The notes under the pieces: model-generated | Database searches by the model: none | What the model saw: only the letters and a program-made list of their open reading frames with translations | Told to the model about the DNA's origin: nothing | Translations under genes and position numbers: made by a program | Source: an uncultured bacterium | Lineage (GTDB): Bacteria; CSSED10-310; CAZUFC01 | Assembly (NCBI GenBank): GCA_964619725.1 | Contig: CAZUFC010000130.1 | Coordinates: forward strand, 1 to 21,703 | DNA length: 21,703 nt | Direction: 5' to 3' | Shown: in pieces, positions 1,101-21,507 of the stretch | How positions within the stretch are numbered: position 1 is the first letter of the stretch | Layout: the number at the start of each line of letters is the position of its first letter

Positions 1101-4100
1101 ATGAAACGGAGAAAGTCAACAAACAACCTGACCAGGACGGGAATACTGATGTTGGTATTCCTGTCTTCGATATTTGCGATGGATCGAACTGCAAATGGAT
1201 TCACATTGAATGTGGTTGATTCTGAGGGAATGGATGTTTCGGGATTCTACTGGATGGTGGAGGGGGATACGACGTTGGCGGTAGTGCCGGGCAACCAGGT
1301 TTCCGACAGTCTGGCGCTGAACATTCACACGAGTTATGCTCCAGTCGTGACGAAGGGAACAGAGACTGGAACAAGCGTAATGATAGATGTACCGGCCGAC
1401 AAGCGATATGTGATATCAGTGCTGCCGACGTCGGGCGAGTACACGATGGGCGGCGCCAATGTTGCGATAGACCAGTCTGAGGTGACGGTTACGGTAAATC
1501 AGAATCCTGTGCCGACGGCGAGAATATCCGTCATTGCTTTTCACGACATTCATCCCTTGAATAATGAACTGGATGCTCCTAACGAAGGAGGTTTGGAGGG
1601 ATTCAGCATCGTAGTGTTCGACATGGCTGGTCAGATGATGCTGGATGCTTTCGGGAATCCATTGGGGACGACTTATGAAACGGATGAAGACGGGAATCCC
1701 ATGATGGACCCGGAAGGGAATCCCATTGTTGATGTAATGGGCAACGGGGACATCATTACGGATGAAAACGGTGAAGCTTTAATCGAATATATTGCACCCG
1801 GAAAGTACGGGATTCATGTGATACCACCTGAAGGGGAAGGATGGAGCCAGACATCCACAATTGAAGGAACCAAAACAGTCGATGCCTGGGTAAAAGCGGG
1901 AGAGCCTCAATTAATGGTGGAGTTCGGGAAGGCTTTTTATCATGTTTTCATTGGTTTTGTACAGCAGATGAACATTCTGGATACGATACCCAATCCGGGA
2001 GGTAACACGGGAACCATAACCGGACGTTTCGTAAGCAATCACATGTCGCATCCGCCTGATTTTCAGGGATTCCCCGGCATTCCCATCAACAATGCCTGGG
2101 TGGGCTTGAATTCTTCAACGTCCAAGGATGCGCTTTATGCGGGGAGATGCGAACCGGACGGTTCTTTTGAAATAATGGACGTTCCTCCGGGAAATTATCA
2201 AATAGTCATGTGGGACGATGATCTGGACTATATATTTTATTTTAACACTGCGACGGTACCTGAGGAAGGGGGAACAGCGGACCTGGGCGATATGCAGGTA
2301 TTCGAGTGGTTCGGCAGGATGCAGGGTCATGTTTTTTACGACATGGACGGAGACGGCTTCCGGGACCCCGGAGAAATGGGAATACCGCGCCAGGACGTAA
2401 TACTCCGGTTTCGCGACGGCACGATATACAAGGTTCAGGCGACCGATCCCACGGGTTTCTATTTTTTCGAAGAAGTTTTCCCCTGGTTCAAATTTCTGGT
2501 GACGGAGGTGGATTTCTTGAGGTACAAAGCAACCGGGGCAACGATGGTTGTTGATGCCGGCGGCGAAATACCCGCTCATGCCGGATGGGCCATGCCGTCC
2601 TGGGATACTTTGAACCCTCAGGAACAGGCTGAAATAAATCCCAACACGGGCAACAATTTGTCGAAGACGGAGACCGGCGTCGTTCTGACTGAGAGCATTT
2701 CAATGTTCGCCGGACTGACGAACGTAATCGACTGGGGTAAGGTTGATTATCCGGCGGGAGAGAACGGCGGAATATCCGGCATAGTATTTTATGCTTCAAC
2801 GAGAGCCGAAAACGATCCCCGGTATGCTGCAGCGGAAGAGTGGGAACCGGGCATTCCCTGGGTTCAGGTCAATTTATACTCGGATTCTGATGTCGATGAA
2901 ATGATAGACGATCTGAACGGAGACGGGGATGTGACGTTGGCTGATGTGGACAATTATCCGATGAGCAATTTTCCGGGCCCTGAAGATGTCGACTGGAACG
3001 ACAACGGAGATTTCGATCCGGGGGACGCCATCAACATCACGACGACGGACAGTTGGGACGACAACAAACCCGAAGGTTGCATCAATGAACCTCTGACGGT
3101 TCATGGAATGCCGGTCCGGGATTGCATAGATAATTTTTACAACTGGAACCAGATCGTTCCCGGAGTATTTGACGGCGGATATGCTTTTGAATCCTATTAT
3201 CCTGGAGGCATGGAATCGGGTAGTCCTGAAACGGAAGGATTGCCCAGCGGTATGTACATCGTTGAAGCAGCGCCTCCTTCAGGATATGAAATAGTTAAAG
3301 AAGAAGACAAAAATGTAGATTTCGGCGAACAGTACATACCGGATATGCTGGCTCTTCCTCCGGTATGCGTAGGCGATCCTCATGTCGTTCCTGCCGAGTT
3401 ATCCCTGTTTCCCGGGATTGACGCGCCGTTTGCGGGAGAAACGCGGCCGTTGTGCAACCGGAAACAGATCATAGTAACGGAGGGCGTAAACGCTGCAGTT
3501 GAATTTTTCTTTTTCACTGAGGTTCCGAAGGCAGCGAGAGCTGTAGGATTGATCAACAATGATCTGGCTGCAGAATCCAATCCTTTCAGTCCGGTGGCGG
3601 GCGAAAAAGCGGCGCCGTCCTGGATTCCCATTTCTTTCCGGGACTATAACGGCAATGAGATAGCGCGAACCTATTCCGACGAATGGGGTTCCTACAGCGC
3701 CTTATTACCCTCCTCTTACACAGAAAACCTCGGTATACCGACAGGCATCTCGCCTCACATGATCAGGATTTGCCTGAATCATCCGGGGCCGATACCCGAT
3801 CCTGATAATCCCGGGCAGTATATTACCGATCCGTGGTTCGATCCTGGTTACAATCAGTCCTGTTATACGTTTCAGTTTGAAGCGGGTCGAACGACTTACC
3901 TGGATACGCCGGTTCTGCCGGTAGGCGCTTTCCGGGAATCATTTCAGGGGCGGCTGGACTGCAATTTCTCAGACGGCACGCCGATGATCTATTCCGTCAG
4001 CGGACCCGGCGGCGGACCTTACGTGGAAACGACCGACATGATCCTCACTATCGTCTCTGCGGGAATGATGGAAGTGCCTAATCCTGACTACATTCCTGGC

Positions 4101-6827
4101 GAACCCGGCAGCGAACCTACTATAACGCGAGATTTCGGATTCGGTCCAGGTGAGGGTTCAGTAATGGTCGGCGGAACCGAACTGGAAGTAATGTTCTGGG
4201 CTTCGGACGGCGGCACAATTTTAGCCAGGGTCCCTGCAGGAACGGAAACGGGAAGATTATCGGTCATGCGGGAGGACAACGGCAAAACGACGCCGGTTGG
4301 AGTAACTCTTACAGTAGGAGATTTCGGCGGAGCCGTTATACGCGTAAACCAGGGCGATTCAATACAGGATGCCGTTAATTCTTCTTCCAGCGGCGATCTG
4401 ATCCTGGTTTCGCCGGGTTACTATGAAGAGAACGTCATCGTATGGAAAAAAGTGAAGCTGCAGGGTTGGGGAGCGGGATCAACTTACATCAACGGCATAA
4501 ATATGAATGAAGCAGAAGCTCAAACAGCCTGGACCGACATGGTTGCATCTCTGATCGATGCGGGCCAGGTCGACCTCGCCCCAGGCCAGACAGTCGGCGA
4601 CGATCCTTTCCTGGCATTCCAGGCTCCTCTGATTTTTATCCTCGTCAAAGAGGGTGAATTCACATCGGATGACCCGGCGCGTGTTGACGGTTTAACTCTG
4701 TTGGGTTCGACCACCGGCGGAGGGATACTGGTCAACGCATACGCCCATTACCTGCAGATAACCAATAACAGAGTCCTGAGCAACCTGGGTTCCAAAGGAG
4801 GCGGCATAATCGTGGGGGCTCCTACAGAACCCAATCCCGCCTTCGGACAATATCCCGGATTTGAAAACGATCATATCCTGATAAAATACAACCAGATAGC
4901 TGAGAATACAGGACTTGACAACGGCGGCGGAGTTATGTTTTATCCGGGTTCCGATACATATGAATTGAATCATAACTTCATCTGCGGGAATTTCACACGC
5001 TGGAACGGCGCGGGAGTCTGTCATTACGGATTGAGTCCTCAAGGTTCTATAAAATACAACAAGGTCATACTCAATGAAGTATTTTACGGAGGCGAAATAG
5101 GAGGAGACGGCGCCGGCGTTTTCATCAGCGGCGAAACCGGCGGCGAACAACTGACGCCGGGTTCAGGTTCGGTCGAAATAATTTCCAACCTGGTCCAAGG
5201 TAATCTTGCGGGGTCAGGGTCCGGAGGCGGAATCAGACTTCAATACATTAACGGCGTTGATGTCGAAAATTCCATGGACCCGCCTAATGATTGGTATGAT
5301 ATTCACATCTTCAACAACATGATCGTAAACAACGTCGCCGGACATTACGCGGGAGGCATATCATTACAGGATGCCGCACGAGTAAAAATCATCAACAACA
5401 CGGTGGCGCACAACGACAGTACGGCGACTGTGGCGGAAGTATTCAATGCGGACGGAAGCGAAACCACGCCTCAGCCTGCGGGAATAGTATCCAACGTTCA
5501 TACGCCATTGCTCCAGTCCGCCGTCGGATCAGGAGCGGGACCTGAATTTTCTGAATTCTCCGATCCTGTCCTGCACGATACGATTCTATGGAACAACAGA
5601 TCGTTTTACTTCGTTGCAGCGATGAACGGCGGGCTTGGAGGACTTTTGCAGAATCCCGACATGTTCTTCTGGGACCTGGACGTCATGGGCAGCTCCGACA
5701 TGTTGAATCCTCATTACTGCAATATAACGCACTCGTCCGGGTACGCAGCCGACAACATGGAAGAAATCCCTTCATTCGTACGGCGATACTTCAATCAGTA
5801 TTCCGTTGCTGCGGTCACTGAAGAGGGCGGCAATCTCGTGAACGTCGCTTTTATACCCATGACCTATCTGGCAGGCGATTATCACCTGGCCATGGACTCG
5901 CCTTTAATCGATGCGGGAGGGGGCATGCACGTTTATGACTTCCCGCTGCTGTCGTGGGATATCGACGGCGATATGCGGCCGGACGGTCCTGGCGTTGATG
6001 TCGGTGCAGACGAATACTTCACAGGCTTCCAGCCGATGCCGGACAAAATCGGCGTCTTCTTCAAATTCTTCTACGGTTACTGGAGGCTGGACTTTGACGG
6101 CGACGGCATATGGGAAGGAGCGCTCGAAGACCTGTTCTACAACTTCGGATACTTCACCGACCTGCCGGTAACGGGCGACTGGAACGGCGACGGATTCACT
6201 GAAGTAGGAACCTACTCCAACGGCAAATGGTTCCTGGACTATAACGGGAACGGAGTCTACGATGGAAGCCTCGGCGACCTTTACTATACGTTCAACCCGC
6301 CTGCAGGCGGCATCATCGTCGATGAACGGCTGACCGGAGACCTTCCCGTTTCAGGCGACTGGAACGGCGACGGATACGCTGAAATAGGCATCTACAGGGA
6401 CGGAGACTGGTATCTCGACTATAACGGCAACGGAACCTGGGACGGAGAAATAGACGACATGATGTTTACAAACTTCATCGGTCTGAATGGAGAAAAACCC
6501 GTCACTGGCGATTGGGATGGAGACGGCTTTACTGAAATTGGAATTTACTACCTGGGTTTCTGGGCGCTCGATATGAACGGAAACGGCTCCTGGGACGGAG
6601 TTCTGGATACTCTCTACTACTACGGAAGCGATGACCATATCCCCGTTACAGGCGACTGGGATGCTATGGGCGGCGATGAAATAGGAGTATTCCTGGACGG
6701 CAGATGGTCGCTAGACTCCAACGGAAACGGCATATGGGAAAGTTGCAGTATAGATGCCTGCCACACATTCGGCAACTTCCCTCAATGGTTCAACAGCATT
6801 GTCTACCCGGTTACTGGAAACTGGTAG
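1101..6827 (+). CDS. Large secreted multidomain surface protein (SdrD/CnaB-like domains, IPT/TIG-like domain, right-handed parallel beta-helix, C-terminal FG-GAP-like repeats)
   Basis: 1908-aa ORF with AGGAGG RBS and basic plus hydrophobic signal peptide; SdrD-B-like GHVFYDMDGDGFRDPGEMGI; beta-helix entry SIQDAVNSSSSGDLILVSPGYYEENV with many N..N...GGGI rungs; closing motif DYHLAMDSPLIDAG...DIDGDMRP...VDVGADEY; five terminal repeats. Confidence 0.9.
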   Translation: MKRRKSTNNLTRTGILMLVFLSSIFAMDRTANGFTLNVVDSEGMDVSGFYWMVEGDTTLAVVPGNQVSDSLALNIHTSYAPVVTKGTETGTSVMIDVPADKRYVISVLPTSGEYTMGGANVAIDQSEVTVTVNQNPVPTARISVIAFHDIHPLNNELDAPNEGGLEGFSIVVFDMAGQMMLDAFGNPLGTTYETDEDGNPMMDPEGNPIVDVMGNGDIITDENGEALIEYIAPGKYGIHVIPPEGEGWSQTSTIEGTKTVDAWVKAGEPQLMVEFGKAFYHVFIGFVQQMNILDTIPNPGGNTGTITGRFVSNHMSHPPDFQGFPGIPINNAWVGLNSSTSKDALYAGRCEPDGSFEIMDVPPGNYQIVMWDDDLDYIFYFNTATVPEEGGTADLGDMQVFEWFGRMQGHVFYDMDGDGFRDPGEMGIPRQDVILRFRDGTIYKVQATDPTGFYFFEEVFPWFKFLVTEVDFLRYKATGATMVVDAGGEIPAHAGWAMPSWDTLNPQEQAEINPNTGNNLSKTETGVVLTESISMFAGLTNVIDWGKVDYPAGENGGISGIVFYASTRAENDPRYAAAEEWEPGIPWVQVNLYSDSDVDEMIDDLNGDGDVTLADVDNYPMSNFPGPEDVDWNDNGDFDPGDAINITTTDSWDDNKPEGCINEPLTVHGMPVRDCIDNFYNWNQIVPGVFDGGYAFESYYPGGMESGSPETEGLPSGMYIVEAAPPSGYEIVKEEDKNVDFGEQYIPDMLALPPVCVGDPHVVPAELSLFPGIDAPFAGETRPLCNRKQIIVTEGVNAAVEFFFFTEVPKAARAVGLINNDLAAESNPFSPVAGEKAAPSWIPISFRDYNGNEIARTYSDEWGSYSALLPSSYTENLGIPTGISPHMIRICLNHPGPIPDPDNPGQYITDPWFDPGYNQSCYTFQFEAGRTTYLDTPVLPVGAFRESFQGRLDCNFSDGTPMIYSVSGPGGGPYVETTDMILTIVSAGMMEVPNPDYIPGEPGSEPTITRDFGFGPGEGSVMVGGTELEVMFWASDGGTILARVPAGTETGRLSVMREDNGKTTPVGVTLTVGDFGGAVIRVNQGDSIQDAVNSSSSGDLILVSPGYYEENVIVWKKVKLQGWGAGSTYINGINMNEAEAQTAWTDMVASLIDAGQVDLAPGQTVGDDPFLAFQAPLIFILVKEGEFTSDDPARVDGLTLLGSTTGGGILVNAYAHYLQITNNRVLSNLGSKGGGIIVGAPTEPNPAFGQYPGFENDHILIKYNQIAENTGLDNGGGVMFYPGSDTYELNHNFICGNFTRWNGAGVCHYGLSPQGSIKYNKVILNEVFYGGEIGGDGAGVFISGETGGEQLTPGSGSVEIISNLVQGNLAGSGSGGGIRLQYINGVDVENSMDPPNDWYDIHIFNNMIVNNVAGHYAGGISLQDAARVKIINNTVAHNDSTATVAEVFNADGSETTPQPAGIVSNVHTPLLQSAVGSGAGPEFSEFSDPVLHDTILWNNRSFYFVAAMNGGLGGLLQNPDMFFWDLDVMGSSDMLNPHYCNITHSSGYAADNMEEIPSFVRRYFNQYSVAAVTEEGGNLVNVAFIPMTYLAGDYHLAMDSPLIDAGGGMHVYDFPLLSWDIDGDMRPDGPGVDVGADEYFTGFQPMPDKIGVFFKFFYGYWRLDFDGDGIWEGALEDLFYNFGYFTDLPVTGDWNGDGFTEVGTYSNGKWFLDYNGNGVYDGSLGDLYYTFNPPAGGIIVDERLTGDLPVSGDWNGDGYAEIGIYRDGDWYLDYNGNGTWDGEIDDMMFTNFIGLNGEKPVTGDWDGDGFTEIGIYYLGFWALDMNGNGSWDGVLDTLYYYGSDDHIPVTGDWDAMGGDEIGVFLDGRWSLDSNGNGIWESCSIDACHTFGNFPQWFNSIVYPVTGNW
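6042..6824 (+). repeat. Five intragenic repeats of about 50 aa (IG.Y..G.W.LD.NGNG.WDG...PVTGDW.GDG), probable Ca-binding beta-propeller
   Basis: Units begin DKIGVF, TEVGTY, AEIGIY, TEIGIY and DEIGVF; the protein ends at PVTGNW. Confidence 0.85.
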
Positions 6828-6891: not shown

Positions 6892-6957
6892 CCGATCTGG
6901 AATGAAACAAGAGGAAAAAAATAAATGAAAATGTCATCAAATCAAGGAGTGATAAAA

Positions 6958-8154
6958 ATGAACAGATTCATAATTTCAATCATGACGCTGTTATTGCTGA
7001 CAGGGTTTGCAGAGATCAACGCTGATATATTCGTTCAATGTCCCGGCGACCTGGACGGCGATGCGATCCCGGACGAAGTTGACCCTGAGCATCCCAATGC
7101 CGTATGCATGCATCTGGCTGCAGGCGACGGTTTTGTGAATATGGGCGATGGAAAACTTCAATACATGTTCGGTTTTTCGGATGTAACCGGAGTAATGCCT
7201 GAAATGGTAATGATGGAAGGAATGCTCAATGCGACTTTTCCTTCTCCCACGATTACGTTGAAAGAAGGACAGGAACTTTATCTCACCGTTACGAATGTCG
7301 GAATGATGGTACGGCCGGACCTTTTCGATCCGCACACGGTCCACTGGCACGGTTTTGCCAATGCGGCATCGGTTTTCGACGGTGTTCCTGAAGCGTCGCT
7401 GGCGATCAATATGATGTCCAGCATCACCTACTACTACAAGGTAGTCGATCCGGGGACCTATCTGTATCACTGCCACGTGGAAGCGACTGAGCATATGCAG
7501 ATGGGTATGCTGGGAAACCTCTACGTTACCCCGGCCCAGGATGAATTGCCTGACGGAACCGACCTGAACGGATTCACCCATCATACGGGATACACATACG
7601 CCTATAACGACGGAGACGGCACAACCTATTACGACGTTGATTTCCCCATACAAATGCATTCGTTCGACCCCGACTTTCATGATGCCAGTCTCAATGTGCA
7701 ACCGCTCCCCTTCGCTGAAATGTGGGACAGATACGCCATGCTGAACGGCAGGGGTTATCCCGATACCGCAAATCCGGATGAACTGCCCAATACTTTCGAC
7801 GGAAGATTCTCTCAGAAAACCTCTTCCCTGATCGAAGCCACGGCCGGCGACATCATACTGCTGCGCTTATCGAATCTCTCGGTTACCCGGTTCTTCACGC
7901 TCGCGGTAATGGGCATTCCCATGAAAATAATCGCCAAAGACTCCAGGCTGTTGAGGGGACCCGACGGAAAAAACCTGTATTACGATACCAATTCAATCAC
8001 AATGGGCGGAGGTCAGGCAGCCGATGCGCTCCTGGATACGTCGCAGGTCGAACCGGGAACCTACTGCCTTTACACTACAAATCTTAACTATCTCAGCAAC
8101 AATGATGAAGATTTCGGCGGCATGATGACCGAGATAATCATCAATGCACCGTAA
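6958..8154 (+). CDS. Two-domain multicopper oxidase-like protein A (type-1 Cu site and HxH motifs in domain 1 only)
   Basis: HTVHWHG (His codons 7333-7350) and HCHVEATEHMQMGM (7468-7509); domain 2 (LNGRGYPD...LLRLSN) has no His motifs; AAGGAG at 6944 and signal peptide MNRFIISIMTLLLLTGFA favour ATG 6958 over the alternative 6925. Confidence 0.9.
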   Translation: MNRFIISIMTLLLLTGFAEINADIFVQCPGDLDGDAIPDEVDPEHPNAVCMHLAAGDGFVNMGDGKLQYMFGFSDVTGVMPEMVMMEGMLNATFPSPTITLKEGQELYLTVTNVGMMVRPDLFDPHTVHWHGFANAASVFDGVPEASLAINMMSSITYYYKVVDPGTYLYHCHVEATEHMQMGMLGNLYVTPAQDELPDGTDLNGFTHHTGYTYAYNDGDGTTYYDVDFPIQMHSFDPDFHDASLNVQPLPFAEMWDRYAMLNGRGYPDTANPDELPNTFDGRFSQKTSSLIEATAGDIILLRLSNLSVTRFFTLAVMGIPMKIIAKDSRLLRGPDGKNLYYDTNSITMGGGQAADALLDTSQVEPGTYCLYTTNLNYLSNNDEDFGGMMTEIIINAP

Positions 8155-8171
8155 AAGAAGGAGGAAGAATC

Positions 8172-9500
8172 ATGAATTTCACAAAGCCGAAATTACTGAT
8201 TATTGTAATCATGTTCGTCGGGATTTTCACGTTGAATGATGCGGTCAGGGCGGTCATTCCGGGCGTTGCCGGTCCTTCGTTTTACCTGACGGCGAAAGAG
8301 GGACATATTTACGGCGGCGACGGTTTAACCCTTAAAACGTGGGGATTTGCTTATGAGGACGGTCCTATGCAATACCCCGGACCGACTATGATCGTTCAGG
8401 AAGGAGATAATGTTTCCATAGCGTTGAACAACCAACTGGAGTATCCTGTTTCCATCGTTTTTCCGGGACAAACCGATGTGACCGCTTCACTGGGAGTTCC
8501 CGGTCTTGTAACGCGTGAAGCGCCTCCCGGAGGCTGGGTGGTGTATGAATTTACGGCTGATCATCCCGGGACGTTTCTTTATCGCAGCGGGACCAGGCCT
8601 GATCTGCAGACGGAAATGGGGCTCGTGGGCGCATTGATCGTCCGTCCTTCCCTGGGCGATAATTACGTTTACAACCATGAGGATTCCTATTTCGATCGGG
8701 AATACCTGTTTCTGTTCACGGAGATGGACCTTCAAATCCACAATCTGGTGGACATCGGACTGATGGAACTGGTAGATACGACGACGTTTGACCCTGTATA
8801 CTGGTTCATCAACGGCCGAAATGCGCCGGACACCATGCTTATGCCGAATGTGCCATGGATGCCCAGTCAGCCCTATAACTGCATGCCGAGAATACATCCC
8901 GGGGAAAAACTGCTTATGCGCATTATTGGAGCCGGCCGGGATACTCACCCCTATCACACGCACGGACAACATATGCGGGTGATAGGCGTAGACGGTCGCA
9001 TGCTTGAAAGCGCTCCGGGAATGGGAACGGATTTATCCGAACTGGCATTTACGTATACGGTTGTTCCAGGCGGAACCGCCGATGCGATTTACGTATGGAC
9101 TGGCGAGAACCTCGGCTGGGATATCTACGGTCATGAACAGGATATCGACAATCCTCCTACAGGTAACTTCCCGGGTCCCGAAGACGTCGATCATGACGGA
9201 GACGGAGAATTCGATAATGTCCCCATGGAACCGGGAGAATACGCACCCGATCATGGAAAACCTCTGCCCGTCCTGCTGCCCGAACCGCAGGACATAGCTT
9301 TCGGCAGTTCCTGGAGCGGCAGCCCCTTCCTGGGGACTTTCGGTTACATTCCGCCCGGACAGGGAGGATTCAATCTTAACGCCGGTTACTTCTACATGTG
9401 GCATTCCCACAATGAAGTGGAAATGGTCAATAACGACATTTTTCCGGGAGGCAATATGACTATGTTGATAGTCGAACACCCGGACGTGCCGATTCCATAA
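8172..9500 (+). CDS. Two-domain multicopper oxidase-like protein B (His motifs in domain 2 only, no type-1 Cys)
   Basis: GGAGG RBS, signal peptide, cupredoxin hallmarks YPGPTMIVQEGDNVSI and FINGRNAPD; HPYHTH (8946-8963) and HSH (9402-9410); domain 1 equivalents read VSIVFPG and YRSGTRPDLQTEMGL. Confidence 0.9.
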   Translation: MNFTKPKLLIIVIMFVGIFTLNDAVRAVIPGVAGPSFYLTAKEGHIYGGDGLTLKTWGFAYEDGPMQYPGPTMIVQEGDNVSIALNNQLEYPVSIVFPGQTDVTASLGVPGLVTREAPPGGWVVYEFTADHPGTFLYRSGTRPDLQTEMGLVGALIVRPSLGDNYVYNHEDSYFDREYLFLFTEMDLQIHNLVDIGLMELVDTTTFDPVYWFINGRNAPDTMLMPNVPWMPSQPYNCMPRIHPGEKLLMRIIGAGRDTHPYHTHGQHMRVIGVDGRMLESAPGMGTDLSELAFTYTVVPGGTADAIYVWTGENLGWDIYGHEQDIDNPPTGNFPGPEDVDHDGDGEFDNVPMEPGEYAPDHGKPLPVLLPEPQDIAFGSSWSGSPFLGTFGYIPPGQGGFNLNAGYFYMWHSHNEVEMVNNDIFPGGNMTMLIVEHPDVPIP

Positions 9501-9506
9501 GAAAGG

Positions 9507-10832
9507 ATGATGATGATCATGAAAACAAAATTTAGTTATATCAGTGTTATGTTGCTGCTCCTGTCGTTTGCGTTTGCCGGAATCCGGCATGATGCGGCGC
9601 TGGCGACCGAATACTTCCTTCGCGCCGAAGCGATGACCGGCACGATGTGCGACGGGACGGAAATAGAAATGTGGGGATACGCCATGGATACAGCGTTCGG
9701 CGCTGAAGACGGCACAGTGACGGTTCCGGGGCCTGTTCTCGAAATACCTCCGGGAGATTCGTCCTTGACGATACACATGGACAACAACCTGAACGTGCCG
9801 ACATCAATAGTCATACCGGGCCTGATCGCCTCTATGTCGCCCGTCAGAAACGGCGAAAACAGAATAGTATCCTTCACCCATGAAACATCTCCGGGTAACG
9901 CCGCGCCGGTTGATTACATCTGGAATAATCTCAAACCCGGTACCTATCTCTATCAAAGCGGTTCTCACATGGCCGTCCAGGTGCAAATGGGTCTCTACGG
10001 AGCAGTTAAAATGGACCACATGATGGGTCAGGCATACGATGAAGTCCAAACAGCCTACGACAGCGAAGTAATGCTGCTGTTCAGCGAAATTGACCCGGCG
10101 CTTCACCAGGCGGTCGCCGAAGATCAATACGGTCCGGGTCTCCTTATGACCAGTACGGTCGACTATCAACCCAAATGCTTCCTTATAAACGGCGAATGCT
10201 TCTCTCCCGGACGTATGTCCATTCCGGCCGGAATTCCGGGCGATACCCTACTGGTAAGGTTCCTCAACGCAGGACTGAAAACAAGGGTCCCTGCCTTGAA
10301 CGGGAAAAGACTCGTCATGTGGGCGGAAGACGGAAACCTGCTTCCCTATCCTAAAAATATAGCAGCCCTGCACCTGGAAGCCGGAAAAACAAGAGATGTC
10401 CTGGTTGAACTCGATCAGCCCGGCTACATCCCTGTTTATGACGAACGTCTTGCTCTGACCAATGCCGGCGTTTCTCCGGGAGGTATGCTGGCTTACCTGG
10501 AAGTCGCTTCGGGTATGCAGTACTGGCTTACCGTCGATGTCGCTTCCTTCGGTCCCGCGGGAGGAACAATTCAGACTTTGAGCAAACCCGCAGGCATCTT
10601 CTGCGAATCGAATTGCAGCGTCATGTACAATGAAGATACGGAACTGCTCCTTCGGGCTACACCTGATGAAAATTCGATTTTTATCGGATGGAGCGGCGGC
10701 GGATGCGGCGGCCTGGGAGACTGTATCGTCGAAATGAACGGCGACAGGACCGTTACGGCATTCTTCTTCCCCGGCGCCCTCTTCAGAAATATACTGCCTG
10801 TTTTGAAACCGACTGTTTCAACAAGGAACTAA
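9507..10832 (+). CDS. Two-domain cupredoxin protein C lacking copper motifs, with C-terminal divergent InlB B-repeat-like domain
   Basis: Signal peptide; VPGPVLEI, PGTYLYQSGSHMAVQVQMGLYGA, FLINGE and LVRFLNAG mark the MCO fold; tail PAGIFCESNC...LRATPDENSIFIGWSGGGCGG..DCIVEMNGDRTVTAFF; the exact start may be a later ATG (9510-9519). Confidence 0.85.
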   Translation: MMMIMKTKFSYISVMLLLLSFAFAGIRHDAALATEYFLRAEAMTGTMCDGTEIEMWGYAMDTAFGAEDGTVTVPGPVLEIPPGDSSLTIHMDNNLNVPTSIVIPGLIASMSPVRNGENRIVSFTHETSPGNAAPVDYIWNNLKPGTYLYQSGSHMAVQVQMGLYGAVKMDHMMGQAYDEVQTAYDSEVMLLFSEIDPALHQAVAEDQYGPGLLMTSTVDYQPKCFLINGECFSPGRMSIPAGIPGDTLLVRFLNAGLKTRVPALNGKRLVMWAEDGNLLPYPKNIAALHLEAGKTRDVLVELDQPGYIPVYDERLALTNAGVSPGGMLAYLEVASGMQYWLTVDVASFGPAGGTIQTLSKPAGIFCESNCSVMYNEDTELLLRATPDENSIFIGWSGGGCGGLGDCIVEMNGDRTVTAFFFPGALFRNILPVLKPTVSTRN

Positions 10833-10833
10833 G

Positions 10834-11388
10834 ATGATGAACTCAACTGTAGACAACAGCAAACCATTTCAAAGGTTGAGTCATTTGGCGGCCGGTTTGA
10901 TGCTCGGACTGACGCTCGCGCTCAGTTCGAGCCCGGTCGCAGCAGTGACCCAAGATACAGAAAACTGGAAAAACAGTTCTGTCACGGTTGAGACCCCGGC
11001 GGATGAACCTGGTCAATCCATTCAGAACCTCGAAAATGAATGGGGGATCGAACTGGTGAGATTGGGCTTGTCAGCCGCAGGATACATGATCGATTTCCGG
11101 TATAAATTGATCGACCCGGAAAAAGCAGACTCCCTTTTTAATCGAAAAACAAAACTATACCTGGTACACCAGAAAACCTCAAAAACGATCCCGGTTTACA
11201 ATCCGGCAAAAGTAGGCCCCATGAGACAAACAGCCATTGAACCCAAATCAGGACGCAATTACTTCATCATGTTCGCCAATCCGGGCCGGTTAATTCAACC
11301 AGGCGATAAAATTACGCTGATCGTCGGCGATTCGAAAATTGAAAATTTGACGATCTCCGGCGGCAGCGTTTCCCAGGCAGTAAATTAA
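10834..11388 (+). CDS. Exported hypothetical protein, last gene of the cupredoxin operon
   Basis: 184 aa, starts 1 nt after the previous stop; hydrophobic signal ending VAA; motifs LSAAGYMIDFRYK..DPEKA and KVGPMRQT...YFIMFANPG, which I recall from proteins encoded beside multicopper oxidases (not verified). Confidence 0.8.
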   Translation: MMNSTVDNSKPFQRLSHLAAGLMLGLTLALSSSPVAAVTQDTENWKNSSVTVETPADEPGQSIQNLENEWGIELVRLGLSAAGYMIDFRYKLIDPEKADSLFNRKTKLYLVHQKTSKTIPVYNPAKVGPMRQTAIEPKSGRNYFIMFANPGRLIQPGDKITLIVGDSKIENLTISGGSVSQAVN

Positions 11389-12030: not shown

Positions 12031-12173
12031 TCAGATTGGGTTATTTTTGGGCTGGTTGGGGGATTTTGTTGGGGTGTTTTTTTTGGGGACTGTTCAAACG
12101 GGGGTTATACTCTTTCATAAAACGCTTGGAATGATTGAAATCCCCTGTTTTTTTTCATCGAGCGCCGTTTTTT

Positions 12174-12211
<38 letters not shown>

Positions 12212-12312
12212 ACTACAAAAAAATTCGAGGAGATATGGTGTGTTCTGCATCATATTTCGAAGCTTCGTAATTATTCAATACAGCGGTACTGATCAAACAG
12301 GGATTACAAATT

Positions 12313-13062
12313 GTGATATCGATACTCAAAATGAACTTTCGTGCTCAGCGGAGCGGCGCTCATGTCGCCGAGGGATGCACCCTGAACTGGGGCGACGGTA
12401 TGATTGATGAGGCCCCATTGTTCACCGTCGGCGTTGAAGGGGGTTTTTACCTGAGTCAGACAGCAGCAGGACAGGGTGAAAACAGTCCCTGCGTAGATGC
12501 CGGCAATGAGTCCGCATCGAACATCACTTTCGAAGGTCCTGATGGAAACGTCTGCATGGATGAGTTATGGACCCGGACGGATGAAGTCGTGGACTACGAT
12601 GAAGCCGATATGGGATACCATTACGGAATGCTTTCCTGTCCGTTGACTCCGACTCCCTTCCCCACCGCTACTCACATTCCCACATCGCCGACACCCACCA
12701 TGAATCCCAATCTCGCTGTTGATTTGACTCTTTCCAAAACGACATTCGTGCCGGGCGATCTTTTCCTGCTGGCCGCGCTTATCTCGAATCCCGGCCCCGA
12801 CACTTACCAGAACCAGCCTTTCGTAGTCCTGCTGGACGCATACAGCATATACTTCTGGCATCCCACCTGGACGGAAACCTTCGATTACGAACCGTTGAAC
12901 CTGGATATTGAAACGATCGATAAAGAAATATTGAGATTTGACTGGCCCGACGAACCGAGTTCAGGTTCCGGCATAAAGTTCTATGGAGCTTTATTGAATG
13001 AAGAATTCAACGATATACTCGGACTCTTCGATATGGTTGAATTCGGGTGGGCGCCAGAATAG
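12313..13062 (+). pseudogene. C-terminal fragment of a secreted beta-helix-type surface protein (5'-truncated)
   Basis: No signal peptide or clear RBS; the first ~25 codons look non-coding; then PLF...FYLSQTAAGQGENSPCVDAG...TRTD...DMGYHY (motif that normally closes a beta-helix domain), a Pro/Thr linker and a C-terminal beta domain ending VEFGWAPE. Confidence 0.6.
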
Positions 13063-15612: not shown

Positions 15613-15996
15613 TCAGAACACCCGCGACGTCTGCAGATTTTCGTCTACCCATAGTCCGACTATATCGAATCCGAAGCCCCACGATTCCGCTAATTTCATG
15701 GACGATTCAATCTGTTTGAGCTGCCTTTCTTTGTCGACTGGATTGCCCGCACAATCGAAATGGCCGACAATGGCGATGACTTTCGAGCCATGTTTTTCAG
15801 CCGAGATGCCGGCATGCCGCCTCAAGAATTCAACCATATCGGTTTCAGTCTGCTCATCAAGGGTCTTGATAGGTCCGGCAGACGTTATCATATCCACGTA
15901 GTCTGCGCCGTATTTTTCTTTCATATAACTGATGACCGGCTCCTGCACACGGCCGTCCATGCAATTCACAGCGGTTACGAATTTTCCTTCAGCCAT
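15613..15996 (-). CDS. Putative small beta-class-like carbonic anhydrase
   Basis: Zn-ligand motifs NCMDGR and GHFDCAGNP; GGAGGTGA RBS upstream of the ATG. Confidence 0.85.
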   Translation of the reverse strand: MAEGKFVTAVNCMDGRVQEPVISYMKEKYGADYVDMITSAGPIKTLDEQTETDMVEFLRRHAGISAEKHGSKVIAIVGHFDCAGNPVDKERQLKQIESSMKLAESWGFGFDIVGLWVDENLQTSRVF

Positions 15997-18877: not shown

Positions 18878-21031
18878 TCATGCTATAGCCGCTTTAACCC
18901 GATCGGGCGTGACGGGCAACCGGAAGACCCTGGCGCCCACGGCATTAAAGACGGCATTGGCTATTACGGCCCCCATAGTAATGATAGCGGGTTCTCCTCC
19001 GCCCTGTGGATCGGCGTTTTTATCGTCTATGACCAGGGTATCGATTCGGGGGACCCAGGAAAAGCGGGGGATTTCGTATGTATCGAAGTTTTCATCCAGG
19101 ATTTTTCCGCCCCTGAAGCGAATGTCTTCCGCGAGAGCATATCCCAGTCCCATGGTGATGCATCCTTCAATCTGGATTCTCGTTCCTTCAGGATTGACCG
19201 AAAGGCCCATATCCTGGGCGCCCAGGACGCGTTTTACTGTGATTTGACCTGTCTTTTCATCGACCTCGACCTCAGCCATAGTCGTCACAAAGGTACCCGC
19301 ATCAATTCCGCATGCTGCTCCGTATCCTTTGCCGCCGGGAGTCTTACCCGGTTTCCAGTTGAATTTTTCCGCCGCTTTTTCCAGCAATCGCTTCATTTTT
19401 CCCTCCTTGAGGTGCTTCAACCTGAATTCTACCGGGTCCTTTCCTGCTTTGTGAGCCATGATGTCTATCTGGGACTCCCGGGCGAAAGTATTGGTATTGT
19501 TGCCGGGAGCCCTCCACGCTCCTGTGGCGAAAGGATGCGACCCGGGCGTTCCTCTCCATCCGGAACCATGCTCTACGGTTGAATGGTGAGGAATATCATA
19601 AAAATGGTCAGCGCCCCGGTCGCCGGCGAAATATACGTGATAGTCCCACAGAATCATGCGGCCTTCTTTGTTTAGGCCTGATTTTATTTTTACTACGGCA
19701 GCCGGCCTGAACGTATCGAGAAAAAATTCTTCACTGCGGCTCCAGGCGAGCTGAACGGGTTTTCCCGTCGCTTTCGCCGCTAGCGCCGCTTCTTTAACCT
19801 GCAGGTTGCTCGTTTTTCCTCCGAAACCGCCGCCTACAAAAGGCGATATGACCCGCACGTTTTCAGGTTTGATGCCCAGGACTTCAGCAGCCTGATCTTT
19901 CGCCCGAAAAGGCGTCTGTGAAGAGGGCCAGACAGTCGCTTTGCCGTCCTTGAATTCAACGACGGCAGTGTGAGGTTCAATGGGCGCATGCGCTTTATAT
20001 CCGTCCAAATACTTGTGTTCGATAATGATGTCTGCAGCGGCAAGTCCTGACTGGAGATTTCCTCCGCCGTCCACCTTTTGACCTTCGGGAGCTGCACTGA
20101 CTAAATGATCGAATATATTTTCTTCATTGAGTTGCGGTTCAGGGACATCATACTGAGTTTTTACTTTAGTCAGCGCTTCCCGGGCCTTATCAGGCGAAGA
20201 ATGCAGGACGGCTATGAAATCGTCTTCCTCAACGATTGATACTCCGTGGAGCTTTTTTGCTTCGCTGAGGTCGATGTTCAGCAATTTTGCATCATGAGAA
20301 GGGGGCCTGAGAACAGCGGCGTAAAGCATGCCCGGCAATTGAACGTCGCCTGCGAATTTTGCTGCTCCCGTTACCTTTTCCAATGCATCACGGCGCAAGT
20401 AAGGTTTACCCATTATTTCAAATTCTTTCGGCTTCTTCAGTTCAACCTTTCCGGAAGCCCTCCGGTCGATTTGTTTCCCCTTCGTCAATTGGCCGTAGGA
20501 AACTTTCCGGCCTGTTCCACGATGCATCACCATGCCATCCTCAGTCGTGACCTCATTAACAGGCGTTTCCAGGTATTCCGCTCCCAACTCCAGTAAAACC
20601 TGCCTGGCTTCCGCTCCGGCAGCCCTCAACTGCGGTCTGAAAAAGCGCGTCGACATGGAACCGAAAGTGCCCATATCCCAGGGACACAAGTCTGTATCGC
20701 CCATGACCATTTCAACGGCGTCCAGGCCGACGTCCAATTCGTCCGCCAGCATTTGAGCCAGCGATGTGACGATGCCCTGACCCATCTCTATCTTTCCCGT
20801 GAAGCATGAAACGCTGCCCTCTTCCGCTATCCGCAGGTAAGCATTGAAATCCTCCGGTATGCCCCGTCTGCCCCTCCCGGAATGGCTGCCCTGCGCCAAT
20901 ACGGTCCTGGGGCCTAACGTGAAAAATACAAAGATGCCGGTTCCTGCCGTTTTTAAAAATTCCCGTCGCGTCATGGGAAAAGCGGCCTTTATCTCCTTAG
21001 ATTCAACATCCGTACGATCCTCTTTTTTCAT
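18878..21031 (-). CDS. iorB: Molybdopterin-dependent oxidoreductase large subunit, isoquinoline 1-oxidoreductase beta / xanthine dehydrogenase family, Tat-exported
   Basis: Tat motif TRREFLK; KIEMGQGI, DMGTFGS, KVTGAAKFAGD, HAPIEPH, VGGGFGGK, AWRAPG, QIEGCITMGLG and GGGEP motifs; the symbol is family-level and the substrate is unknown. Confidence 0.92.
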   Translation of the reverse strand: MKKEDRTDVESKEIKAAFPMTRREFLKTAGTGIFVFFTLGPRTVLAQGSHSGRGRRGIPEDFNAYLRIAEEGSVSCFTGKIEMGQGIVTSLAQMLADELDVGLDAVEMVMGDTDLCPWDMGTFGSMSTRFFRPQLRAAGAEARQVLLELGAEYLETPVNEVTTEDGMVMHRGTGRKVSYGQLTKGKQIDRRASGKVELKKPKEFEIMGKPYLRRDALEKVTGAAKFAGDVQLPGMLYAAVLRPPSHDAKLLNIDLSEAKKLHGVSIVEEDDFIAVLHSSPDKAREALTKVKTQYDVPEPQLNEENIFDHLVSAAPEGQKVDGGGNLQSGLAAADIIIEHKYLDGYKAHAPIEPHTAVVEFKDGKATVWPSSQTPFRAKDQAAEVLGIKPENVRVISPFVGGGFGGKTSNLQVKEAALAAKATGKPVQLAWSRSEEFFLDTFRPAAVVKIKSGLNKEGRMILWDYHVYFAGDRGADHFYDIPHHSTVEHGSGWRGTPGSHPFATGAWRAPGNNTNTFARESQIDIMAHKAGKDPVEFRLKHLKEGKMKRLLEKAAEKFNWKPGKTPGGKGYGAACGIDAGTFVTTMAEVEVDEKTGQITVKRVLGAQDMGLSVNPEGTRIQIEGCITMGLGYALAEDIRFRGGKILDENFDTYEIPRFSWVPRIDTLVIDDKNADPQGGGEPAIITMGAVIANAVFNAVGARVFRLPVTPDRVKAAIA

Positions 21032-21507
21032 TTTATTTTGCCTCCCATGACTTCAGCCGCCGCTTCCACAGCCCGAATTATCCGTTGATGAGCCCCGCAA
21101 CGGCATAAGTTGTTTTCCATGCCCGCAATGATTTCTTCTCTGGAAGGTTTCGGGTTCTTCTTTAATAATGCGTAAGCGTTTAAAATCATTCCCGGAGTGC
21201 AATAACCGCATTGCAATGCATCATTGTCCATAAAAGCCTGCTGCAAAGGATGAGGATTACCGTTTTTCGCTAATCCTTCAATCGTAATGACCTTTTTGCC
21301 CTGGACAGCCTTAACGGGAGTAATGCATGAGCGTATGGCCTCATCATCCGCTAAAACAGTGCAGGCTCCGCATAGCCCCTCGCCGCAGCCGTATTTCGTC
21401 CCGGTTAAACCCAGATCGGTGCGTAACACCCATAACAGATAACGGTCCCCGTCGGTTTTTATTTCGACAGTTTTGCCGTTAAGGTTGAAAGAAATAACGT
21501 CGTTCAT
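21028..21507 (-). CDS. iorA: (2Fe-2S)-binding small subunit, IorA/CoxS family
   Basis: GTKYGCGEGLCGACTV...C and QCGYCTPGM...NLCRCG; GAGGAGG RBS; ATGA overlap with the large subunit gene; the symbol is family-level. Confidence 0.95.
   Translation of the reverse strand: MNDVISFNLNGKTVEIKTDGDRYLLWVLRTDLGLTGTKYGCGEGLCGACTVLADDEAIRSCITPVKAVQGKKVITIEGLAKNGNPHPLQQAFMDNDALQCGYCTPGMILNAYALLKKNPKPSREEIIAGMENNLCRCGAHQRIIRAVEAAAEVMGGKIK

Follow-up and report, generated by a model that had tools for sequence, protein, structure and literature searches.

We analysed a stretch of 21,703 nucleotides (nt) from contig CAZUFC010000130.1 of an uncultured bacterium of the lineage CSSED10-310; this whole stretch is called the window in the following. 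It contains three adjacent genes encoding the two-domain cupredoxin proteins A, B and C, which each carry a part (A, B) or nothing (C) of the copper ligand set of a multicopper oxidase (MCO) and would probably work together as one enzyme. The three genes are part of a five-gene module that comprises a giant protein, A, B, C and a small protein D:

1101 to 6827, plus strand: giant protein, 1908 amino acids (aa), secreted
6925 to 8154, plus strand: protein A, 409 aa, two-domain cupredoxin protein with a Sec signal peptide, candidate for the catalytic subunit
8172 to 9500, plus strand: protein B, 442 aa, two-domain cupredoxin protein with a Sec signal peptide, candidate for the cluster-completing subunit
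9507 to 10832, plus strand: protein C, 441 aa, two cupredoxin domains and a Sec signal peptide, candidate for a metal-free ring and adaptor subunit
10834 to 11388, plus strand: protein D, 184 aa, small, secreted, lipoprotein-like

In the window the spacers measure 17 nt between A and B, 6 nt between B and C and 1 nt between C and D. Each of A, B, C and D has a hydrophobic, signal-peptide-like segment at its N-terminus. For A the start is probably M12 at position 6958, where the signal peptide begins. A promoter and terminator scan provided no convincing terminators between the genes of the module, the sites found being no more numerous than in shuffled sequences. The original prediction regarded A, B and C as a three-gene unit. 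The three are indeed conserved together (see below), while the giant protein and D had been missed as conserved partners.

All three cupredoxin proteins pass the cut-off of 21 bits of the Pfam family Cu-oxidase_3 (A 60.6, B 65.8 and C 29.9 bits). Over the families of the Pfam multicopper oxidase superfamily (Cu-oxidase_3, Cu-oxidase_2 and Cu-oxidase, with cut-offs of 20.4-21) A reached 60.6, 43.3 and 33.6 bits and B 65.8 and 39.3 bits; the second domains of B (14.3 bits) and C (15.8 bits) stayed under the Cu-oxidase cut-off. The closest solved relatives by sequence, including a profile search, are type C two-domain multicopper oxidases (2dMCOs), which the original prediction had cited for comparison: the blue copper oxidase of Nitrosomonas europaea (3g5w) and the metagenomic mgLAC (2zwn) as the best ones, and an Arthrobacter enzyme (3gdc). 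A, B and C have the fold family in common with these enzymes. Type C 2dMCOs are homotrimers with three type-1 copper (T1) sites and three trinuclear clusters. In 2dMCOs four of the cluster histidines come from domain 1 of one protomer and four from domain 2 of its neighbour. An excerpt of PMC13151041 likewise describes 2dMCOs as trimers in which the cluster is coordinated by residues of two protomers, with the T1 site of type C enzymes being located in the N-terminal domain.

The ligand motifs of A and B as well as the additional C-terminal domain of C are found at the following positions, the ligand roles being assigned by alignment:

7333 to 7353, plus strand: motif HTVHWHG of A, aligns to HTIHWHG of 3g5w; H137 T1 ligand, H140 and H142 ligands of the trinuclear cluster
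7468 to 7509, plus strand: motif HCHVEATEHMQMGM of A, aligns to HCHVNVNEH..M of 3g5w; H182 and H184 cluster ligands, C183, H190 and M195 T1 ligands
8946 to 8966, plus strand: motif HPYHTHG of B, aligns to the domain-2 HxxHxH of 3g5w and 2zwn; H262 and H264 cluster ligands
9399 to 9410, plus strand: motif WHSH of B, aligns to the domain-2 HDH of 3g5w; H411 and H413 cluster ligands
about 10614 to 10766, plus strand: InlB-B-repeat-like domain of C, C-terminal, following the two cupredoxin domains

According to a regular-expression count domain 1 of A contains the only two HxH motifs of this protein (residues 140 and 182); the ligand-equivalent positions of its domain 2 are occupied by F/A/M and Y/T in the alignment. 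B also has two HxH motifs, at residues 262 and 411, which both lie in domain 2, and it lacks an HCH motif. Domain 1 of B carries a remodelled site, RSG...Q...L, with V..V.P, R-S-G, Q and L at the ligand-equivalent positions. In C no HxH motif is found, and both domains have non-ligand residues at these positions (T..V.P, Q-S-G, Q and L in domain 1; R..A.N and Y.E in domain 2). The T1 set of His, Cys, His and Met in the N-terminal domain, which characterizes type C enzymes, is present in A alone, the corresponding residues of B and C being x-S-G, Q and L. The distribution put forward in the original prediction, i.e. ligands in domain 1 of A only, ligands in domain 2 of B only without a T1 site, and neither ligand set in C, was thus confirmed by the motif counts and the alignment to 3g5w. 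One detail has to be corrected: within HPYHTH of B, H262 and H264 are invariant in both clades described below, but H259 is probably no cluster ligand, since this position is His in just 31 of 44 B sequences of the sister clade.

As in type C 2dMCOs, the T1 site and the motifs HxxHxHG and HCHx5H..M are located in an N-terminal domain, here that of A, and HxxHxH plus HxH in a C-terminal domain, here that of B. While every chain of a type C enzyme carries all twelve ligands, in the module they are divided over two paralogous chains and the third chain has none. Judged from the alignments and the ligand columns, domain 1 of A and domain 2 of B would together supply the eight histidines (four each) and one T1 site, as had been predicted, and no single protein would be complete; the full eight-His set is present in A and B together only. 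Given the division of four plus four histidines across protomers, none of A, B and C would build the cluster as a homo-oligomer. Further differences to the type C enzymes are a Cys-containing N-terminal extension of A, an insertion of about 90 residues in domain 2 of B, an immunoglobulin (Ig)-like tail of C, the giant partner and D.

That homologous clusters may exist in other genomes had been anticipated. They do: 334 stretches of species-representative genomes encode a relative of A, and a sister clade exists in addition. The A family is large and slowly evolving, with the best 120 of 5,251 word-index matches having 61-72% identity to A and coming from many phyla. One A orthologue (P0009) is assigned to a cultivated species, Dissulfuribacter thermophilus. 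Gene order was determined for the best 80 of the 334 stretches, which belong to many phyla and are called loci in the following. B is the next gene after A, in the same orientation, in 79 of the 80 loci; the single miss has 167 bp left after A. C follows B in 74 loci; in the other six the contig ends 167-1,759 bp after A. Downstream of C, D was found in 61 loci, 15 of the 19 misses having less than 4 kb after A. The median spacers over the loci were 19.5 nt (A-B) and 18 nt (B-C), with the first ATG of each frame taken as the start. Homologues of A that commonly occur without B and C had been named as an observation that would speak against a shared enzyme. This was not found, as all misses lie at contig ends and the genes co-occur in whole genomes (see below).

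The ligand columns are likewise conserved. Among 81 A sequences H137 and H184 are retained in 80 and H140, H142, H182, C183, H190 and M195 in all 81; in B each of H259, H262, H264, H411 and H413 is His in 77 of 77 sequences. Such (near-)invariance in sets of 81 A and 77 B sequences, drawn from many phyla, excludes chance as the cause of the split. The lost sites were found to be conserved as well: the lost Cys is Ser in 73 of 76 B and in 65 of 66 C sequences, and in B and C of both clades the same replacements occur, namely HCH by x-S-G, the T1 His by Gln, the Met by Leu and HxH by V..P. Random decay of the ligands, which had been considered as a possible cause, is not in agreement with these shared replacements, nor with the cluster histidines of B in the sister clade, which are retained in 44 of 44 sequences. 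Judged from the aligned columns, the ligand split is a conserved arrangement and not decay.

The median identity to the proteins of the window amounts to 61% for A, 53% for B, 45% for C and 41% for D. Within the proteins the conservation is 0.70 for domain 1 of A compared to 0.60 for its domain 2, and 0.67 for the ligand-bearing end of domain 2 of B compared to 0.55 for its domain 1. By this regional measure the constraint tracks the copper ligands. The total length of C orthologues ranges from 331 to 984 aa, the extra part consisting of 3-6 Big_9/cadherin-like repeats or other adhesin-type domains. In one C orthologue (locus L047, 10510-12420) a putative ice-binding-like adhesive domain (pAdhesive_15) is located between the two cupredoxin domains. 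In two B orthologues from metagenomes (P0275 and P0276) a PAP2/haloperoxidase-like domain of about 420 residues precedes the B part in the same chain (PF01569 in a precomputed Pfam list). A further candidate, P0277, looked like a B-C fusion but was rejected, being a frameshifted read-through in which the C part has its own signal peptide. What looked like an A-B fusion in locus L069 was likewise rejected as an artefact of ORF extension.

An exhaustive search of representative proteins with A provided 2,798 matches at E <= 1e-3, of which 271 had E <= 1e-30. Beyond the close relatives there is a deep sister clade, in which the A counterpart (A') has 35-45% identity to A, a twin-arginine (Tat) signal peptide, and the T1 site as well as four histidines in domain 1 but none in domain 2. 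We sampled this clade with 80 metagenome loci, from soil and sediment metagenomes. Both A' motifs are present in 80 of 80 of these loci. B' follows A' in all 53 loci with at least 1.3 kb of room, and a homologue of the giant protein lies upstream of A' in 32 of 32 loci that leave 2.5 kb or more for it. C' was identified by best match in 28 of 34 loci, and four of the other six have a weaker C-like match at the expected place; D' was found in 15 of 17 loci. In B' all 44 sequences have His at the positions of H262, H264, H411 and H413 (31 of 44 at that of H259, as mentioned above). Hitchhiker export, in which the Tat signal of A' would carry signal-less B' and C', was considered and rejected: the 12 B' N-termini inspected (of 44) have signal-like hydrophobic segments of their own.

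A maximum-likelihood tree of 87 sequences has the topology (A,A') | ((B,B'),(C,C')), where the split between A and B plus C has a support of 0.996 and the grouping of C with C' a support of 0.96. According to this topology the triplication and the division of the ligands predate the split of the two clades. On the tree, B and C are sisters whose domain-1 sites were lost once. All three paralogue lineages have been retained in both clades.

Whole genomes gave a similar picture. Among 14 genomes of the window's own phylum, A, B and C occur in the same three, where they are always adjacent. Among 201 genomes sampled from the order of a Thiobacillus metagenome-assembled genome, A was detected in four and B and C in three at the thresholds used. 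Inspection of the locus in the fourth A-bearing genome revealed a divergent A-B-C set, so that four of four have B and C. In this divergent locus (L162, G210:C70:121000-137000) A, B and C have 44%, 35% and 31% identity to the window proteins, and the gene of the giant protein lies downstream of C, not upstream of A. In the 9.17 Mb assembly to which the window belongs, the only matches to Cu-oxidase_3 are A, B and C. The absence of any further Cu-oxidase_3 gene in this assembly means that there is no other gene to supply the missing halves.

The giant protein has a conserved core of about residues 1-1640, which consists of Ig-like SdrD_B/prealbumin-type domains, a conserved region of 650 residues and a right-handed beta-helix. 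It is followed by a lineage-specific C-terminal repeat tail, which (after about aa 1640) is common to the window and locus L015 only. In 75 of the 80 loci the gene immediately preceding A encodes a homologue, with 38-57% identity over up to about 1,640 residues. Conservation of the core is even: in 56 sequences, 203 positions reach a conservation of 95% or more, with four invariant His and no invariant Cys. Searches of Pfam and NCBIfam provided only weak domain matches (SdrD_B, fn3_3 and Beta_helix). The match to the NosD model TIGR04247 (26.4 bits, cut-off 300) covers model positions 1-44 only and is that of a generic N-terminal beta-helix cap. Against the PDB sequences neither the whole protein nor a profile of its middle region gave a match. 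The nonapeptide NFPGPEDVD occurs both in the giant protein (2967-2993, aa 623-631) and in the domain-2 insertion of B (9165-9191, aa 332-340); the motif PGPED.D.N.NG.FD.GDA is kept in giant orthologues, and B orthologues mostly have a different, Cys-containing insertion. D gave no match to Pfam, NCBIfam or the PDB sequences, including a profile search of the latter. Its orthologues mostly have a lipobox-like GC after the signal peptide, and the mature part has no conserved His, Cys or Met.

Fusions connect several proteins of the module. The giant protein and A form a single in-frame open reading frame (ORF) in four of the 80 loci (L025, L043, L063 and L074). About 22 of the best 150 representatives are 1,200 aa or longer and end with A, and the two that were checked (P0127 and P0139) are giant-A fusions. 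In one locus (L001, 10562-12196), which is the closest relative of the window, D is fused to the C-terminus of C, and in another one (L053) C is fused to a giant-like protein.

Some genes accompany the module in part of the loci. A cytochrome c protein of about 540 aa with one cytochrome c domain is found near the module in 14 of the 80 loci and a gene for a SCO1/SenC copper chaperone in 11 (flanking examples of these genes are L024 1337-2917 and L068 745-1377); they are a possible electron donor and a possible copper supplier, respectively. A LuxR-type response regulator is located near the module in 18 loci, in nine of them together with a PAS histidine kinase.

Since the complete canonical ligand set is split over two ancient paralogues that are always adjacent, the simplest explanation is a catalytic interface formed by A and B. 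We are fairly confident, on the basis of the sequences, that A and B share the cluster, whatever role C has. With somewhat less confidence we propose that A, B and C form an obligate hetero-ring that has a single T1 site and, between A domain 1 and B domain 2, a single trinuclear cluster, and that is placed within a larger extracytoplasmic complex. C would most simply be the third ring member, because it has kept the full two-domain fold and shares the remodelled site of B. Physical assembly, ring order, 1:1:1 stoichiometry and oxidase activity are properties that we infer from the comparison of sequences.

In detail, the proposed ring would consist of six cupredoxin domains as in the homotrimeric 2dMCOs, with metal at only one of the three subunit interfaces. 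The order of the domains around the ring would be B1-B2-A1-A2-C1-C2. Domain 1 of A would hold a type-1 copper on H137, C183, H190 and M195 and contribute the cluster ligands H140, H142, H182 and H184. Domain 2 of B would contribute the other four, H262, H264, H411 and H413, such that the histidines of A and B would bind one trinuclear T2/T3 (type-2/type-3) cluster at the B2/A1 interface. C would complete the ring in a metal-free manner via the A2/C1 and C2/B1 interfaces and would carry a variable Ig-like tail. By analogy with the family, electrons would pass one by one from the T1 copper through the Cys183-His182/184 bridge to the cluster, where O2 would be reduced to water. A, B and C would be exported separately and assembled outside the cytoplasm. 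The ring probably belongs to a larger complex; the giant protein is fused to the N-terminus of A in some species and D to C in one. The giant-A and C-D fusions suggest that the ring is seated on the giant protein via the N-terminus of A, and on D or the cell surface via the tail of C. The substrate may be a metal ion, a cytochrome c, or some group that the giant partner presents.

Several observations weigh against such a ring. Four loci without D have more than 5 kb of room for it. Neither an A-B nor a B-C fusion was found in the 80 loci or among five longer relatives of B, which turned out to be other fusions or frameshift read-through. The missing fusions are weak evidence, because with the ring order B-A-C a read-through fusion would not join neighbouring domains. 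No covariation was obvious between the ligand-adjacent position A141 and B263 or B414. Many host lineages are anaerobes by name (Desulfobacterales, Thermodesulfovibrionales and Sedimentisphaerales), which is odd for an O2-reducing enzyme. In the sister clade the export routes differ, A' having a Tat signal and B' a Sec-type look (for the 12 of 44 B' N-termini inspected); with these routes the subunits would assemble only after export. Finally, the grouping of B with B' has a support of 0.55 only, and one rogue long-branch C' sequence is placed inside the B group.

Among the alternatives, the one that survives best leaves the shared cluster of A and B in place and puts C outside the ring. The ring would then be closed by a second A or B (A-B-B or A-A-B), or A and B would form another oligomer, and C would act as an adaptor that connects to the giant protein, D or the cell surface via its Ig-like tail. 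An adaptor role would fit the fact that C is the least conserved of the three (median 45% identity), that its tails are variable (Ig, cadherin, adhesive) and that the fusions to D and to a giant-like protein involve C; moreover, the stoichiometry is not fixed by any sequence data. However, both cupredoxin domains of the 2dMCO fold are kept in C family-wide, its site x-S-G ... Q ... L is the same as that of B, C is present wherever there is room for it, and its lineage is as old as that of B. For a two-domain cupredoxin subunit whose interface-type residues are conserved, membership of the ring is the simplest explanation. We regard an adaptor outside the ring as unlikely.

A slightly less probable alternative, to which we assign little weight, is that A, B and C are separate homotrimers or monomers with non-canonical copper sites, whose genes are linked by a common pathway only. 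A would then hold T1 and a half-cluster (for electron transfer or in a NirK-like manner), B a binuclear site made from its four domain-2 histidines, and C would be copper-free and structural. The individual signal peptides of A, B and C agree with this idea, as do the Tat and Sec-type looks of A' and B' in the sister clade, and A is not tied directly to B by either fusion or covariation. A also matches the equivalog model of the copper nitrite reductase NirK (TIGR02376), but weakly: A scored 28.2 bits and B 38.4 bits, far under the cut-off of 296.3. According to an excerpt of PMC13151041, the inter-domain copper sites of two-domain MCOs and of NirK need two protomers. In a homotrimer of A, domain 1 would face a domain 2 without any His. 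The eight histidines are moreover the exact canonical set, divided four plus four and invariant in both clades, which is hard to explain if the halves work alone.

Very improbable is that the cupredoxin proteins are no oxidase at all but scaffold or copper-sequestering parts of a surface structure around the giant protein, with histidines that bind copper for storage or sensing: no other part of the module is indeed as large or as uniformly conserved as the giant protein, the tails of C are adhesin-like, many host lineages are anaerobes by name and structural copper-free MCO-like proteins such as FtsP/SufI exist (according to an excerpt of PMC2661564), yet a complete T1 site with the HCH Cys-His bridge plus the complete set of eight histidines is what marks enzymes that transfer electrons internally to a trinuclear cluster. 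This combination is retained in 80-81 of 81 sequences, and its geometry would not be required by storage sites.

The proposed A:B:C ring had been likened to ceruloplasmin in the original prediction. Ceruloplasmin, hephaestin and MnxG form a six-domain cupredoxin ring in which one domain interface holds the only trinuclear cluster and the remaining sites are copper-free or degenerate. In ceruloplasmin the T1 sites are located in domains 2, 4 and 6, and the cluster lies between domains 1 and 6. The likeness holds in so far as the module has one eight-His set and one T1 site. It does not hold for the T1 placement, which in ceruloplasmin is the C-terminal half of each domain pair but in A the N-terminal domain of the pair. 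If the ring is real, this opposite placement would mean an independent route to an asymmetric ring. Furthermore, the ceruloplasmin/MnxG type is a single polypeptide with six domains, whereas here three ORFs with their own signal peptides are found. Compared to the type C 2dMCOs there would be at most one T1 site and one cluster per ring.

The Mnx complex of Bacillus sp. PL-12, which consists of MnxG together with MnxE and MnxF, is an MCO whose function depends on a complex of several proteins from a single operon. In Mnx a single chain makes up the oxidase ring, and small proteins without a cupredoxin fold serve as accessory subunits, whereas the module would have a heteromeric ring. For D and the giant protein no similarity to any solved protein was detected. 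FtsP (SufI) is described in an excerpt of PMC2661564 as a copper-free MCO-like protein that has the cupredoxin fold without copper ligands. C and the ligand-free domains of A and B likewise keep the cupredoxin fold without copper ligands. FtsP is, however, a three-domain monomer in cell division while C is always encoded with A and B, and C scored only 15.4 bits against the FtsP model (cut-off 581). A two-domain MCO trimer with non-identical subunits is Nmar_1354 (MCO4) of Nitrosopumilus maritimus, an "alpha-alpha-alpha-prime heterotrimer" according to an excerpt of PMC11761707. Its subunits differ in whether the product of a single gene has a pendant cupredoxin domain or lacks it, and clusters are located at all three interfaces; ligands are not divided between paralogues.

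The window holds further features beside the module. Among sequencing runs, four DNA runs and no RNA run were listed as matches; the four belong to one microbial-mat study, and one of them may be the source. Just 3' of it, at about 12135-12292, lies a simple repeat that reads as GVGVGV or GSGSGS in overlapping ORFs. An ORF of 249 aa at 12313-13062 has no Pfam match; relatives of it are located near the module in the two closest loci (upstream in L001, downstream in L015). The other neighbours are unrelated to the module: a putative carbonic anhydrase (Pro_CA_2; 15613-15996, minus strand), the large subunit of a molybdopterin aldehyde oxidase/xanthine dehydrogenase-type enzyme (18878-21031, minus strand) and its 2Fe-2S subunit (21028-21507, minus strand).

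To our knowledge, every characterised multicopper oxidase has its full ligand set in one polypeptide. The module would represent a multicopper oxidase of type C ancestry that deviates from this feature. In the literature we found no heteromeric or heterotrimeric two-domain MCO, the sole "heterotrimer" being the single-gene Nmar_1354; an earlier mention elsewhere is possible, as most subscription journals lie outside the search. At present A, B and C are annotated alike as "multicopper oxidase domain-containing protein", and expression of a single gene would probably yield an inactive protein. Taking all parts together, the module may encode a widespread extracytoplasmic oxidase machine, with a three-paralogue ring of one T1 site and one cluster that is docked or fused to a giant beta-helix protein and tethered via the C tail and D, and it would then be the first obligate heteromeric MCO; for this picture as a whole we see the chances as evenly balanced.

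If correct, a catalytic cluster that exists only between two different gene products and is complemented by a metal-free paralogue would be a new quaternary solution for the MCO family. The module would also provide a natural and datable case of subfunctionalisation after duplication, in which three active sites became one. This three-to-one step is what evolutionary models of ceruloplasmin-type oxidases must assume, and the module would be a living example of the transition from a symmetric homotrimer to an asymmetric single-site ring, independent of the ceruloplasmin lineage. Since the module is common and its giant partner has no solved relative, a sizeable unexplored extracellular redox biology may hang on it.

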